From assembly GCA_001817915.1 (NCBI GenBank), contig MHJJ01000011.1, forward strand, positions 17,710 through 80,121: a stretch of DNA of 62,412 bases. The letters are read 5' to 3'. Below the pieces are notes generated by a model. The model was not told the origin of the DNA. It saw nothing but the letters and a program-made list of their open reading frames with translations, and did no database searches. Positions 10,900 through 25,139 of the stretch are shown here, piece by piece. The translations under genes were made by a program, and so were the position numbers. The DNA is from Candidatus Harrisonbacteria bacterium RIFCSPLOWO2_01_FULL_44_18. Its GTDB lineage: Bacteria; Patescibacteriota; Minisyncoccia; UBA6257; WO2-44-18. The stretch's first letter is position 1, and each line of letters starts with the position of its first letter.

Positions 10900-11985
10900 T
10901 TAGAAAAATGTCTTCGGAATATGAAAAGATTTTTTTGTTTTGAAGGTCCGAAGCCAATCAATATAATCGCGAATGGATTTTTCTGGCCCGAAACGCGGTT
11001 TCCAGTGAAGTTTTTCCAATTTTGAGATGTTAGAAATCGCATGCCGCGTATCCGTACGCCGAAAACCAGATACTATAATAGGGGACGCGGAATCGGTGAT
11101 CTTTTTAACAAGCTTCGCAAAATCAAGCACTAAAATACCTCGCCCACCACCAACATTAAAAACTTTAAAGTCCGCTTTCGGATTATTCAGAACCACGATA
11201 TTTGCCGCAACAACATCTTCAATATTTACAAAATCCCGTTTCTGCTTGCCATCTTCATACACCGTAATTGGCTTGCCGGTTAAAGCCTGCACGCAAAAAA
11301 TTCTAAGAGCTCCGGAATACAGATTCCTTGGGGATTGTCTAGGTCCTTGTACAATCGAATAACGCATAAGAACGGTCGGTATCCCATATGTCTTTCCCAG
11401 ACGAAGCGCCGCCTCTTCTAGCGCGTGCTTAGAAAGCCCATAGGAATTTGTTGGCGTCACGCGCTGATCTTCACGAAATGGAATCGGCATTGCGGGTGCT
11501 TTATGGGAACACAAAATTTCCCAGCTCTTTTTCTGAAGCGCATGAACAGATCGCAATTCCGGGAAAAATGTTTCTCCGGTATGAGCGCATCGATACATGC
11601 CATCGCCATATACGAACTGGGAACTGGCAAGAATAACTTTTTTAATCGGGAGTTTTTTTTCAACTATTATTTCGTAAAGAAGCGCCGTGCTTACGGTATT
11701 TGTGGTAAAAAAAACACTAAAATCCGGGCGCTGATCCTGATACGCCGCAAAGTGATACACATACGATACCCCTCGTAATGCCCTGACCCAATCTTTCTTT
11801 TTTCTAACATCTCCCTTTATAAGCTCATATCCCCTTCCCCTCACGTATTCGGGCCATGTGTTGTTATGTACTGCGGATAAGAGATTATCTAAAATACGGA
11901 TTCGGTAGCCCTTTTTTGTCAAGGCATCGGCCGTATGAGAACCGATAAATCCGGCTCCTCCGGTAATAAGAATTTGTTTTTTCAT
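10900..11985 (-). CDS. NAD-dependent nucleotide-sugar epimerase/dehydratase/reductase (extended SDR)
   Basis: ITGGAGFIGSH Rossmann motif and the YGLSKHALE (YxxxK) catalytic motif. Confidence 0.8.
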   Translation of the reverse strand: MKKQILITGGAGFIGSHTADALTKKGYRIRILDNLLSAVHNNTWPEYVRGRGYELIKGDVRKKKDWVRALRGVSYVYHFAAYQDQRPDFSVFFTTNTVSTALLYEIIVEKKLPIKKVILASSQFVYGDGMYRCAHTGETFFPELRSVHALQKKSWEILCSHKAPAMPIPFREDQRVTPTNSYGLSKHALEEAALRLGKTYGIPTVLMRYSIVQGPRQSPRNLYSGALRIFCVQALTGKPITVYEDGKQKRDFVNIEDVVAANIVVLNNPKADFKVFNVGGGRGILVLDFAKLVKKITDSASPIIVSGFRRTDTRHAISNISKLEKLHWKPRFGPEKSIRDYIDWLRTFKTKKSFHIPKTFF

Positions 11986-11988
11986 ATA

Positions 11989-12687
11989 TTATTTTTTGCG
12001 AAGCACATAATAAATACTTTTCCCAAACCATTCATTTTCCGGAAAACGAAATTTGCGAAAAAAACCGTAAGGAAACTCTCCTTTGCAAAAACCTTTTTCA
12101 ATGATATTAAAATATTTTAAGACGGTTTTTTTAAAAACGCCTTTGGGAAATAAGGCAATATGGTCATTTTTTTCTTGCCACCGAGGCATATCGCCGCTTT
12201 TGAGAAAAATCAATCTATTAAAGATATTAAAAATGTTCGGGGTTGAAAGAAAAAATATTCCGCCGGGCTTCAAAACGCGGTTAACTTCTCTGATAAAATG
12301 GTGCGGATTTTCCAAATGTTCAATGACCTGCCAGGCGCTTACTGCGTCAAAAAAATCATCTGGCCAGGGCAACATTTCGAAATTTATATTGCCGACTTTG
12401 AATTCTCGAAAATATTTTTTTCTCTCGTTTGTCGCGTAATCGCCGGCATCGTATCCAAATACTTCCCAGAAGTCATCTCGCCGAAGCTGTTCGGCGAAAA
12501 AACCGTTTCCACAGCCGATGTCCAGAATACGGAAATCTTTTCGTACGCGCGCGTGAAACAAAGCCAGCGCTCTTCCTTGAACCACTATATCGCTTCCTCC
12601 GCCTTCATCCCAAGCATTCCGCAGATCGTTTCGCGCGGCAGGTAATTCGTTTGGATTTAAGTATTTCATCCCGCACATAACTAGCAC
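11989..12687 (-). CDS. class I SAM-dependent methyltransferase
   Basis: ILDIGCGNGFF and AWQVIEHLENP motifs. The track start is GTG at 12687. ATG at 12678 or 12669 is more likely, because the first codons lie inside an inverted-repeat arm. Confidence 0.8.
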   Translation of the reverse strand: MLVMCGMKYLNPNELPAARNDLRNAWDEGGGSDIVVQGRALALFHARVRKDFRILDIGCGNGFFAEQLRRDDFWEVFGYDAGDYATNERKKYFREFKVGNINFEMLPWPDDFFDAVSAWQVIEHLENPHHFIREVNRVLKPGGIFFLSTPNIFNIFNRLIFLKSGDMPRWQEKNDHIALFPKGVFKKTVLKYFNIIEKGFCKGEFPYGFFRKFRFPENEWFGKSIYYVLRKK

Positions 12688-12960
12688 AACAAGCTATGAC
12701 GCAATCTATCTTTGAGTCGGCGCCAGGCTTGACCATGCTACTTTAATGATGCCTCACGACGATAGGCATCTTCTTTGATGGCATATACCTCGCAGTAAAC
12801 AAGTTTGATGGGTAATCTTGATTTGGTGTATAAAACCTTTCCTTGCTTATGCTGTTCCAATCTCTTTTTGAAGTTATTGGTACAACCAATGTATATTGTA
12901 TTTAACTTTGTTTTGAGGAAATAAACGTAATACATAAGCAATGCTAATTATGTGCGGGAT
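12668..12960. mobile_element. GIY-YIG ORF bracketed by ~19-bp terminal inverted repeats (candidate small selfish element)
   Basis: 12668-12686 ATCCCGCACATAACTAGCA matches the reverse complement of 12942-12960 (ATCCCGCACATAATTAGCA), 18 of 19 positions. The arms enclose only the 65-aa GIY-YIG ORF. Confidence 0.45.
12738..12935 (-). CDS. GIY-YIG nuclease family protein (short, UPF0213-like)
   Basis: MYYVYFLKTKLNTIYIGCTNNFKKRLEQHKQGK...LVYCEVY...AYRREASLK carries the GIY / YIG / R / E pattern. The ATG at 12935 is preferred over the TTG at 12941. Confidence 0.75.
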   Translation of the reverse strand: MYYVYFLKTKLNTIYIGCTNNFKKRLEQHKQGKVLYTKSRLPIKLVYCEVYAIKEDAYRREASLK

Positions 12961-14316
12961 TCATCCCCTGAAAAATTCTCGCTTTAACAACGCCCTATCT
13001 TTTTCATCAAATTGAAAAAGCGTCCTGAAATTAAATGAGAGCGACGGAGCTATCCTTCTTAAAATATAATACCGCGCCGCCGTTAATGCAAAAACAAAAA
13101 CCACGGCATTAATAGCCGTACCGGCAATTCCAAAAATGATAATACCGATAGCAAGAGTTAATGGATATCCCAGTTTTGACAGATTGATAAAAAAAAGATT
13201 CTTTTGGGCGCGGAATGTGTATAGCGCCGCAGTCACGGCATTCGAAATAGGAATAACCAGAAATCTCAAAAGCATTATATTGAAAAGAAAGAGAGAGGGT
13301 AAGTATTTGGGGAAGACGAGTTTTAAAAATGGAGGCGCGAAAACATAGGCGACGATTCCCATCAATGCGTATAGCCAAGTAAAATATTTAATAGTCCGCT
13401 GAAAAAGAAACGAAAGCCGGTCGGGATCGGTAATCTCTCGCGGGAAAACAACTCTTAAAATCTTTTCTATCGGGATAAGATCGCCAAGAGCGCTGTAAAG
13501 AGAAGAAGCGACGGAAAAAAGCGCGACTGCCTCTATTCCAAGAAAATACTTTATAACCCAAGGTTCCAAATCTCCAATAATGCCGGTTTGATCATTGAGA
13601 AGAGACCACTTGCCGTGCGCTTTGATAGTTTCAAGAAATGAATAGGAGCCGCGTGGAATTTTTGACAAATCAATAATATTTTTTAAAACCGCCGGGAAAA
13701 ACACAATTAGCGGCAGAAAGGCGGAAAAAAGATACGCCAGAGCAACGCCGATGATTCCAAATTTATTAAAGACAACCAAAATTATAATAAGACAAAGATA
13801 GAAAAAGCGGCTTAAGAAAGTGAAGCCGGCCTCCGACGCGAATTTTGCCTGCGTGGAGAATAACAAAAGATAGATTCGCTTGATCGACATTAAAACAAAT
13901 GACGCAGAAAGAATCATCAGTATTGCTCTCGCGTCCGCGCCGATAAGCGTTGATATAAAAGGCGCGGCAAAAAAAACAACAACGGCAACAAAAAAACTTA
14001 ACGGAAAAACAATTCTGATAAACGCTCTCAATTCGGCGCGGTATCGCCCGACTTTACCCTCGCCAAGATCGCGCGCCATATCCGTTAGAAATATGTTTTC
14101 CAGAGTGGGAAGAGTAAGCGCGCCGATAATCGCGATGGCTGATTGCGCCAGTTGCCACACGCCGTACTCAAAAACGCTCAACGCCCGAATCACCAGAAAC
14201 GCGGCGGCAATATTTACTAACTGCGCAAGCAACTTAGCCGATGATAAAGCAACTATTCCCTCTTTGATTATTCGCGCAATCGATTTTTTACCCCCTTGAT
14301 TATTCATCCCACACAT
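12961..14316 (-). CDS. Wzx-like oligosaccharide/polysaccharide flippase (MOP superfamily)
   Basis: 451 aa with about 12 or more hydrophobic helices. The N-terminal pattern KEGIVALSSAKLLAQLVNIAAAFLVIRAL is typical of polysaccharide biosynthesis flippases. Confidence 0.7.
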   Translation of the reverse strand: MCGMNNQGGKKSIARIIKEGIVALSSAKLLAQLVNIAAAFLVIRALSVFEYGVWQLAQSAIAIIGALTLPTLENIFLTDMARDLGEGKVGRYRAELRAFIRIVFPLSFFVAVVVFFAAPFISTLIGADARAILMILSASFVLMSIKRIYLLLFSTQAKFASEAGFTFLSRFFYLCLIIILVVFNKFGIIGVALAYLFSAFLPLIVFFPAVLKNIIDLSKIPRGSYSFLETIKAHGKWSLLNDQTGIIGDLEPWVIKYFLGIEAVALFSVASSLYSALGDLIPIEKILRVVFPREITDPDRLSFLFQRTIKYFTWLYALMGIVAYVFAPPFLKLVFPKYLPSLFLFNIMLLRFLVIPISNAVTAALYTFRAQKNLFFINLSKLGYPLTLAIGIIIFGIAGTAINAVVFVFALTAARYYILRRIAPSLSFNFRTLFQFDEKDRALLKREFFRG

Positions 14317-14442
14317 AACAAGGATTGCCTTTCTCGAGCAATCACTTATTTTTTAATATATGGCCGTTTGGCTTCTGAAAACATAGTTCGTGTAGTAAAT
14401 TTTGGCAAAGGCAGAATTGCTAAATCCTTGTTATGTGTGGGG
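14308..14442. repeat. ORF-less miniature copy of the 12668-12960 inverted-repeat element
   Basis: Perfect 19-bp inverted repeat: 14308-14326 CCCACACATAACAAGGATT against 14424-14442. The arm core CCCRCACATAAC is shared with the GIY-YIG element. It fills the spacer between two genes. Confidence 0.6.
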
Positions 14443-14446
14443 TCCA

Positions 14447-15835
14447 TCATATTGTTGTGTCCAATGATTTTAGTATCGCGTCCGCTATGCGCTTGCCGGC
14501 GCCTCCGTCAAATTTCCAGCATTGCTCCTTAACGACGCGCGCCCTTCCTTCGCGATCAAGCTCGGGATGTTTTAAATAAAGATTTATGGACGCTATTAGG
14601 TCTTCGGCTGTTTTTGCCAAACGCACGCCGCCGCTTTTTAAAATCGGCTGATAATGCGTGTAGTGATGAAGCTGTAAAACGCTAGTAGAATCATAAAACG
14701 GCTTTTTTTCCCACCCGTCAAAACATACATTGATAACGGGCTTGTCAAATGCTGACGCGTCAATACTCATCGTTGATTGGATGGTGACGACAATGTCGCT
14801 GTAAAAAAGCGTATTATATAAATGCATCATATCATCGAAAAGCATTTCCTCCGATACGCCTCCCGGCGCGGGCAACTGAATACCCGGAACATCAAATAAA
14901 ATAGTTTTTGATTTTTTAAGCCCCCGATCAATCATGTGCGCGGCCGGATTTGGATGCATCCGCACCAAAATTTGAAGGTCTGATGGAAGATCGCCCCGAT
15001 CAATAGCATCGCTGATAATCTGGACATCTTGCCACTCGGTATCGCTAAAACTCTTCCCGATGGCGGCGAATAAAATCAAACGTTTGGCAGGATCTCCGCC
15101 GATGCGCTTAAAAAATGCCTCGCGAGCACAGGGTTTCTCCGTAAAATAATAATCGAAGTGGGGCATGCCGGCGATAATAATCCTATTTCCCGGGTAATCG
15201 CACAGCTTTTCGGCCTCTCTCTTCGTAATTTCATTTGGAACAATCAAAACATCGGGGTTTATTCTCATTGCGCTTTTGTTAGCCGTTAAATTATCCCAGG
15301 AATGAATAAGGCCGACCGTTTTAATTTTCCGGCGTTTGGCTTCGCGGATAAACGCCTGATCGCAGGCATGAATAATGTGGGGGGCGAAAACCAAATCGGG
15401 TTTGTATTGCTCAAAATATTTAGCAAGCTTAGTATCTCGCACTAAAAAATAATCTAGTAAACGGGCAGTTCTTCTTAGAAAAGAAAGATTGGAAAACAAT
15501 TTTATTAAAAGCCATGAAAAAAAATAAAAAATGTAATTATTTTCTTTTTCCAGACGCATTCGCCGCAAGCACTTTATCGTTTCATTATCAACAAAAAAAA
15601 GGGCCAGATGCCTGAAAAAAGAATCAAGTTTATTTAAGGGGTCGTTAAAATTATCCAGCGGCTCAAAAAATACGTTCTCCGCCCCAACTTCTTTTCTATA
15701 AAAATCTTTTTTATAAGAAGGGGCAAAAAGAACAACGCGAAGATCCTGCTTCTGCCTTAATTTCTTCCAAACGTCTGTTCTTAATATATTTCGCGCCACT
15801 GATGGCACAAAAATAGGAATAAAAATAGTTTTCAT
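14447..15835 (-). CDS. uncharacterized GT-B-like polysaccharide biosynthesis protein (paralog of 402..1781)
   Basis: 462 aa; shares its motifs with 402..1781 (see that entry). Confidence 0.6.
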   Translation of the reverse strand: MKTIFIPIFVPSVARNILRTDVWKKLRQKQDLRVVLFAPSYKKDFYRKEVGAENVFFEPLDNFNDPLNKLDSFFRHLALFFVDNETIKCLRRMRLEKENNYIFYFFSWLLIKLFSNLSFLRRTARLLDYFLVRDTKLAKYFEQYKPDLVFAPHIIHACDQAFIREAKRRKIKTVGLIHSWDNLTANKSAMRINPDVLIVPNEITKREAEKLCDYPGNRIIIAGMPHFDYYFTEKPCAREAFFKRIGGDPAKRLILFAAIGKSFSDTEWQDVQIISDAIDRGDLPSDLQILVRMHPNPAAHMIDRGLKKSKTILFDVPGIQLPAPGGVSEEMLFDDMMHLYNTLFYSDIVVTIQSTMSIDASAFDKPVINVCFDGWEKKPFYDSTSVLQLHHYTHYQPILKSGGVRLAKTAEDLIASINLYLKHPELDREGRARVVKEQCWKFDGGAGKRIADAILKSLDTTI

Positions 15836-24752: not shown

Positions 24753-25139
24753 ATGAAAATTTTCAAAAACATAAAACCCGAATTCACTGATGAACGCGGA
24801 GAAATAACAACGATTCTTGATGACGGCAAAACCGCCATCCGCGGCGTTCTTATCATTACTTCTAAAAAAGGCTCAGTGCGCGGTAACCATTACCAAAAAA
24901 AGGACTCGCACTATTGTTACGTGCTTGTCGGAAAGATGAAGTATTTTGAAAAACCGATAAACGCCGACAATTCCAAAATGAAAACCGCGGTTTTGAAAAA
25001 AGGTGATATGGTTTATACTCCACCGATGGTGGTCCATGCCTTTCGATTTTTAGAAAACACAACTTGGGTATGCCTCGCTACCAAATCAAGAAAAAACGGC
25101 GCTTATGAAGAAGATACAGTCAGAGTTAAACTTATCTAA
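24753..25139 (+). CDS. cupin-fold NDP-sugar epimerase/ketoisomerase-like protein (RmlC/FdtA-like)
   Basis: 128 aa. FTDERGEI and VRGNHYQKK...VVHAF are cupin motifs. It lies directly upstream of an NDP-sugar C-methyltransferase. Confidence 0.5.
   Translation: MKIFKNIKPEFTDERGEITTILDDGKTAIRGVLIITSKKGSVRGNHYQKKDSHYCYVLVGKMKYFEKPINADNSKMKTAVLKKGDMVYTPPMVVHAFRFLENTTWVCLATKSRKNGAYEEDTVRVKLI

Follow-up and report, generated by a model that had tools for sequence, protein, structure and literature searches.

The window analyzed here is a 62,412-nt stretch of the genome of a Candidatus Harrisonbacteria bacterium, in which all of the genes between 11989 and 15835 are on the minus strand. In the direction of the genes, these encode a glycerophosphotransferase-like protein (Glyphos_transf; 14447–15835), a multi-pass membrane protein (12961–14307; called a flippase in the initial annotation) with 448–451 aa and no Pfam match at E up to 0.01, and a class I SAM methyltransferase (11989–12669). 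The start of the membrane-protein gene adjoins one repeat-bounded segment (element B) and its stop adjoins another (element A), and the start codon of the methyltransferase gene adjoins the far side of element A. The question is whether the small nuclease gene within element A is a resident of this operon or arrived there by insertion. We interpret 12664–12964 as the insertion of a palindrome-ended element, about 290–295 bp in length, whose sole cargo is a single-domain Ssn/Slx1-like GIY-YIG nuclease; we give this interpretation a probability of roughly 70%.

Element A together with its two boundary hexamers occupies 12664–12964 on the minus strand, with a CCC…GGG core at 12670–12958. Its arms, both listed with plus-strand positions (12668–12686 on the left and 12942–12960 on the right), are inverted, that is, 12668–12686 (+) and 12942–12960 (−) are identical at 18 of 19 positions and have the sequence ATCCCGCACATAA(C/T)TAGCA; a search with the arm pattern gave three matches versus 0.02 expected by chance. 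As first described, these arms enclose only one ORF, and this ORF encodes a GIY-YIG domain protein. The right arm starts one base past the TGA of the upstream membrane-protein gene; the ancestral stop codon of the nuclease (12681–12683) is located within the left arm, as are two of the three bases of the methyltransferase ATG. Read on the gene strand, the element directly follows the membrane-protein TGA and ends with …GGG, after which the methyltransferase ATG follows. The boundary hexamers are TTTCAT (12664–12669) and ATTCAT (12959–12964), that is, ATGAAA and ATGAAT on the gene strand; the motif TCATCCC noted earlier at both outer edges is indeed present at 12666–12672 and 12961–12967.

The methyltransferase start is most likely the ATG at 12669–12667 (MKYL…) and not MCGM, because the methyltransferases of relatives begin at MKYL or MEYL; with this start, the left arm overlaps two bases of the start codon alone. 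The overlap of the left arm with the first methyltransferase codons (MCGM) that had been proposed is confined to these two bases, and the “MCGM” extension is, as judged from the sequence, arm sequence.

The nuclease ORF (12738–12941, minus strand) matches Pfam PF01541 (E 2.4e-13; 50.6 bits versus a cut-off of 22.6). Its length is 65 aa from the ATG (12738–12935, 65 codons) or 67 aa from an upstream TTG, and it ends at a premature TAG (12738–12740). Past the TAG, the frame is still open for the 18 codons of the former C-terminus (12684–12737, minus strand); the ancestral frame of 84 codons fills the whole inter-arm space and ends at the TAG within the left arm. An intact counterpart (L051/L071) is located at an unrelated locus in the genome of another genus: a 297-bp element with the same arms and an 84-codon ORF whose stop codon is inside the far arm. 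When read through its TAG, the window ORF shares 59% identity over 83 aa with this intact homologue, the 18 post-TAG codons included; because the alignment continues across the TAG, the window ORF is a nonsense-truncated copy of the 84-codon nuclease. The original count of 65 aa is correct from the ATG, although it describes the truncated form of this longer frame. Contigs from independent samples have the same sequence, and no variant was reported at the TAG.

Across 26 homologues (window copy included), Y5, Y16, G18, H30, and E62 are invariant and R26 is nearly so; the truncated window ORF keeps the catalytic Tyr, Tyr, Arg, His, and Glu. The last helix in a model of the intact homologue (mean pLDDT 89.7) is formed by residues 69–84, and by alignment to this model the truncated ORF is predicted to have lost it. 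The best structural matches of the model are UPF0213, Slx1, and I-TevI, with UPF0213 and Slx1 the nearest solved structures; an NCBIfam search with the nuclease returned no useful family. We recognized no transposase in element A, the only ORF of which is the GIY-YIG nuclease.

The regions of elements A and B fold as long-range hairpins in ssDNA (z = −4.0 and −4.8, respectively, versus shuffles), in agreement with the hairpin-forming shell that the initial annotation described. The RNA of the element B region folds as well (z = −3.0), and this would also be expected of a small gene of the ordinary kind that is inherited vertically, with RNA hairpins between the operon genes as terminators or regulators; such a gene would also be in keeping with the presence of the arm at two loci only in this genome and with the shortest relatives of the arms, members of 22–30 nt that resemble simple hairpins and are followed by a T-run in 8 of 33 cases. 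However, no T-run follows the arms of element A or B, an Rfam search of 11900–15000 at E up to 1 was negative, arms of this family are found at unrelated loci in many genomes, and empty sites exist (vide infra); we regard the vertically inherited gene as very improbable. We also rejected translational coupling as the main role of the hairpin; although the RNA does fold, this leaves the dispersed copies and the empty sites unaccounted for. In one run (X4), a contig joins 12686 to 12939 and skips the nuclease ORF, with only 22 nt on one side of the joint; the joint may reflect either an allele of element A that lacks the ORF or a repeat artefact.

The arm core ATCCCRYACATAA is found in the 752-kb genome only in the four arms of elements A and B. 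Of the 21 species genomes in the bacterial family, 15 contain it, with as many as 18 matches in one genome (the reversed pattern, used as a control, gave 0–1 per genome), and the matches are mostly inverted pairs that enclose 26–297 bp. ORF-less members with the same termini (26–232 bp) occur in related genomes, and element B is one of these; all members of the arm family have only approximately 14 terminal nt in common, and their interiors differ. Several hairpins of 22–27 nt with the same core (five loci among others) have ACRCGTCC on one side and a T-run on the other; these look like a separate, terminator-like repeat unit.

Element B (14302–14441, minus strand) is the miniature copy that had been reported 1.4 kb from the nuclease ORF. 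Its arm pair (14299–14326 and 14423–14450; 86% complementary over 28 nt) encloses 96 non-coding nt and no ORF, and the core CCCRCACATAAC is common to the arm pairs of elements A and B. Its exact bounds are provided by an empty site: contigs of a co-occurring strain with ~91% identity (runs X4 and X6) join 14301 to 14442, and in this strain the stop codon (TGA) of the upstream gene and the start codon (ATG) of the membrane-protein gene overlap as ATGA. On the gene strand, the inserted 140 nt consist of CCC…GGG followed by ATGAAT; because they end with ATGAAT after GGG, element B brings a new start codon to the membrane-protein gene. The hexamer that precedes the element, ATGGAC, is the original and matches the new ATGAAT at four of six positions. 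The membrane-protein gene predates the arrival of element B; the insertion is only loosely dated, because the evidence consists of assembled contigs of a diverged strain. By analogy with this empty site, the upstream hexamer of element A (12959–12964) would be the original host hexamer.

In most relatives, the membrane-protein gene is missing from its position between the glycerophosphotransferase and methyltransferase genes, and these two genes are direct neighbors in that order. The possibility that the membrane-protein gene is a cassette carried between elements A and B was ruled out, as the gene was present before element B.

We compared the empty and occupied junctions at the methyltransferase start by reading the sequences directly. 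Two relatives (L002 and L006) have an empty site, that is, an uninterrupted ATGA stop/start overlap; in a third (L007), the methyltransferase ATG itself is the site of a member of another arm family (ATCCCGTTAGAAAT…), with ATGAAAT on both sides; and a fourth (L009) has an ORF-less element of the window’s own arm family at the methyltransferase start. An ORF of at least 60 codons starts at the GGG-ATG junction in 18 of the 26 arm-family members of at least 50 bp. The comparisons suggest that the elements rebuild the start codons of the genes on which they land. At the G008:C2 locus (L009/L025; about 24985–25094), the glycerophosphotransferase ORF has no stop codon before the element, and a TAA inside the arm ends the ORF.

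The initial annotation had read the locus as one copy of a small selfish element family, and it proposed a search for the arm in the genome and its relatives, a comparison of copies with and without the ORF, and a comparison of empty with occupied sites. The results of all three favor that reading: the arm is a dispersed repeat in 15 of the 21 family genomes, the ORF-bearing and ORF-less copies have their termini in common, and empty sites are found both at the methyltransferase start (the ATGA overlaps of L002 and L006) and in the co-occurring strain, which lacks element B exactly. The contrary case that it described, an arm confined to the two loci of the window and no empty sites in relatives, did not arise: the arm is at two loci in this genome, yet it is dispersed in relatives, and empty sites exist. 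The small number of copies in this genome (two, the single ORF of which is truncated) does count against a mobile element; with one truncated copy and one miniature, the element family in this genome is probably no longer autonomous.

Is the arrangement in element A particular to this arm family? Each genome of the bacterial family contains 1–10 small GIY-YIG genes, and about two-thirds of the 30 such loci that we inspected are tightly bracketed by inverted repeats, with units of 268–326 bp and at least eight arm types; proteins with the same arm type average 68% identity versus 43% between types. A scan of species genomes with an alignment of five sequences as the query identified >530 relatives, the best 80 of which are mostly from Patescibacteria (CPR). 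Among these best 80 of >530 homologues, 72 are bracketed by inverted repeats in units of 269–445 bp (269–331 bp in all but one), the arms mostly begin (A)(T/C)CCC…CAC, and seven have the window’s arm type; several other lineages of the CPR contain further intact copies with this arm type. Boundary direct repeats of 5 nt or more are present in 22 of the 72 bracketed loci (31%), compared with 3.4% in mismatched-pair controls. The boundary repeats are imperfect, as are those at element B, where the hexamers of the proven insertion match at four of six positions, and they may represent either target-site duplications or mimicry of the target by the tail of the element. Placement at start codons is a trait of the ATCCC-type subfamilies and is seen in only seven of the 72 bracketed loci from the best 80; in seven of eight copies of the window’s arm type from other genomes, ATGAA follows the right arm on the ORF strand, as expected if a host gene with the same orientation starts there. 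These sequence comparisons point to a class of palindrome-ended GIY-YIG elements that is common in CPR bacteria, with the window copy a decayed member.

The closest described systems are the Ssn proteins of the cd10448 clade, single-domain GIY-YIG nucleases that bind NTS/SRM hairpin repeats in ssDNA (Chenal et al., 2025, Nat Commun; PMC11893778). These nucleases cut just upstream of the hairpin, and the ssn genes are bracketed by the repeats, an arrangement in which the authors noted an IS-like layout (PMC11893778). We recovered a 94-aa SsnA orthologue from N. gonorrhoeae, accompanied by 16 copies of the NTS within 2.6 kb; the intact homologue of the window nuclease is 44% identical to this NTS-flanked protein over 64 aa (E 5e-14), and a profile comparison with SsnA (hhalign) gave a probability of 98%. 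In both cases, a single-domain GIY-YIG protein (about 85–95 aa in both; 84–87 aa for the intact forms here) is encoded by a gene that is bracketed by hairpin-forming repeats, the repeats recur elsewhere without the gene, and the protein and repeat variants co-vary. However, the NTS/SRM repeats are self-contained hairpins of 20–50 nt on each side of the gene, whereas the arms here are the halves of one hairpin with the gene as its loop; the C-terminus of the element protein differs from that of SsnA; and ends that adjoin start codons, boundary repeats, empty sites, and miniatures of 26–232 bp are absent from the published account (PMC11893778). The published degenerate SRM pattern has no match in the whole 752-kb genome, and this counts against the assignment. 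We would group the element with the Ssn/hairpin-repeat kind as a variant, one for which the comparative evidence suggests mobility and the mechanism is conjectural. The first description of the locus stated that no such family was known to be described; in view of the Ssn proteins with their hairpin repeats (PMC11893778), the kind is better called not wholly undescribed.

In Neisseria, NTS and SsnA have been proposed to limit the recombination of incoming ssDNA (PMC11893778). A domesticated system of this type, in which the repeats serve the host (e.g., by limiting recombination of incoming ssDNA around glycan genes) and are maintained by selection and not by transposition, would be in keeping with the similarity of the protein to SsnA and with the repeats on either side of a surface-glycan membrane-protein gene, which recall the NTS-gene-NTS layout (PMC11893778). 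The window ORF, however, is nonsense-truncated, the genome has only two copies of the repeat, the membrane-protein gene was present before element B arrived, and the precise placement at start codons and the empty sites resemble insertion events; we therefore judge domestication to be improbable.

The arrangement also resembles REP/REPIN sequences and their RAYT partners, in which a gene-bearing member is flanked by inverted palindromic repeats and ORF-less hairpin doublets are dispersed; the CGTC-tagged REPs have been reported without a dedicated enzyme (PMC3116915; PMC3733652). The partner here is a GIY-YIG nuclease, in contrast to the HUH tyrosine transposase of the RAYT systems. The genome does contain three RAYT-like Y1_Tnp genes (C12:483-758, C14:91619-91840, and C10:16730-16954; 234–242 aa), a point against the interpretation that the nuclease belongs to a mobile element of its own. 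Another enzyme, such as a RAYT-like Y1 transposase or the host replication/repair machinery, could mobilize the hairpins, with the GIY-YIG gene as a passenger or a secondary invader of the loop. Most of the ORF-less members have only ~14 terminal nt in common with the ORF-bearing copies, and integration is not explained by GIY-YIG chemistry alone: GIY-YIG enzymes are hydrolytic nucleases, and to our knowledge they have no strand-transfer chemistry, which makes it questionable whether an 84-aa protein could be the only factor in transposition. Against another enzyme, each Y1_Tnp gene has REP-like palindromes of its own on both sides, and these bear no relation to the GIY-YIG arms; in 72 of the best 80 loci, the nuclease ORF takes up the inter-arm space; the arms encode the C-terminus and the stop codon of the nuclease; and the protein types and arm types co-vary. 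We find mobilization by another enzyme unlikely, although less so than domestication, and membership in the REPIN/RAYT systems was rejected because the Y1 (HUH) genes carry other palindromes.

Other known systems share some of these features. MITEs (e.g., the Correia elements of Neisseria) and the palindromic elements of Rickettsia are likewise short, hairpin-forming insertions with terminal inverted repeats that leave host genes functional. For MITEs, a parent element with a gene for a known transposase can usually be identified, whereas the sole gene-bearing form here encodes an 84-aa nuclease. GIY-YIG ORFs have been described in non-intron insertions of CPR rRNA genes, where they are sparse and outside a homing context (J Bacteriol 2024; PMC11270868). 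The host group and the protein family are the same as those considered here, and homologues in our set also occur in SSU and LSU rRNA genes; unlike our elements, the insertions in the portion of that article considered here are presented without mention of inverted-repeat shells, sites in protein genes, or miniatures. A homing endonuclease in a self-splicing intron, suggested by the link that the initial annotation drew to homing endonucleases, was rejected: 11900–15000 contains no Rfam intron match, and the copies are at many unrelated sites. Integron attC sites were rejected as well; the arms loosely resemble RYYYAAC…GTTRRRY, with one mismatch each, but there is no cassette array, and copies are located in rRNA genes and at the starts of single genes.

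How might such an element move? In the mechanism that we envisage, the arms would pair when the DNA is single-stranded, and the nuclease would recognize the foot of the hairpin and cut next to it, in the manner of SsnA at NTS hairpins. Once excised or copied, the element would re-enter adjacent to hexamers similar to its own ATGAAT tail; such hexamers are common at gene starts. The tail would provide a new ATG, the host gene would survive, and the element would be transcribed along with the host operon. In its fullest form, this proposal is that an 84-residue nuclease and the hairpin formed by its own flanks constitute a complete, autonomous mobile element of ~290 bp, which would be the smallest known and would represent a new class of transposition: it would move via an ssDNA hairpin, target ATGAAT-like sites (often start codons), rebuild the start codon, and have seeded MITE-like families across the CPR and other phyla. 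We advance this fuller proposal tentatively, as a serious possibility and with distinctly less confidence than the insertion itself.

If the nuclease drives these elements, the Ssn family would gain an origin in selfish elements, and the enzyme missing for a large class of bacterial palindromic repeats would be supplied; an extremely compact mobile unit would then be able to occupy start codons and, in other genomes, rRNA genes and positions at or within RNase P RNA genes, and leave these genes functional. Such elements could account for many of the peculiar N-terminal extensions in CPR annotations and for many of the small “hypothetical” ORFs there, and many natural nuclease/hairpin pairs would be on offer for ssDNA tools.

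The sites occupied by homologous elements in other CPR genomes include the interiors of SSU rRNA genes (four loci: L149, L158, L179, and L197) and LSU rRNA genes (L136 and L139). Four further elements (L130, L174, L176, and L191) are at or inside RNase P RNA genes; the sequences on either side resemble the P2/P4 strands, and helix P3 may thus be replaced by the arms. Seven elements of the ACCCCGCACC arm type (L072, L074, L075, L140, L152, L164, and L165) have the direct repeat TTGAC on either side, a sequence similar to a −35 promoter hexamer; elements of this type may land in or create promoters. Outside the window, the same genome contains another small GIY-YIG gene (contig C8:18448-18663) that, as read by eye, is located between a sequence like the 5′-half of a tRNA and an apparently complete tRNA gene; the arrangement is suggestive of a tRNA-gene-associated insertion and a partial duplication.
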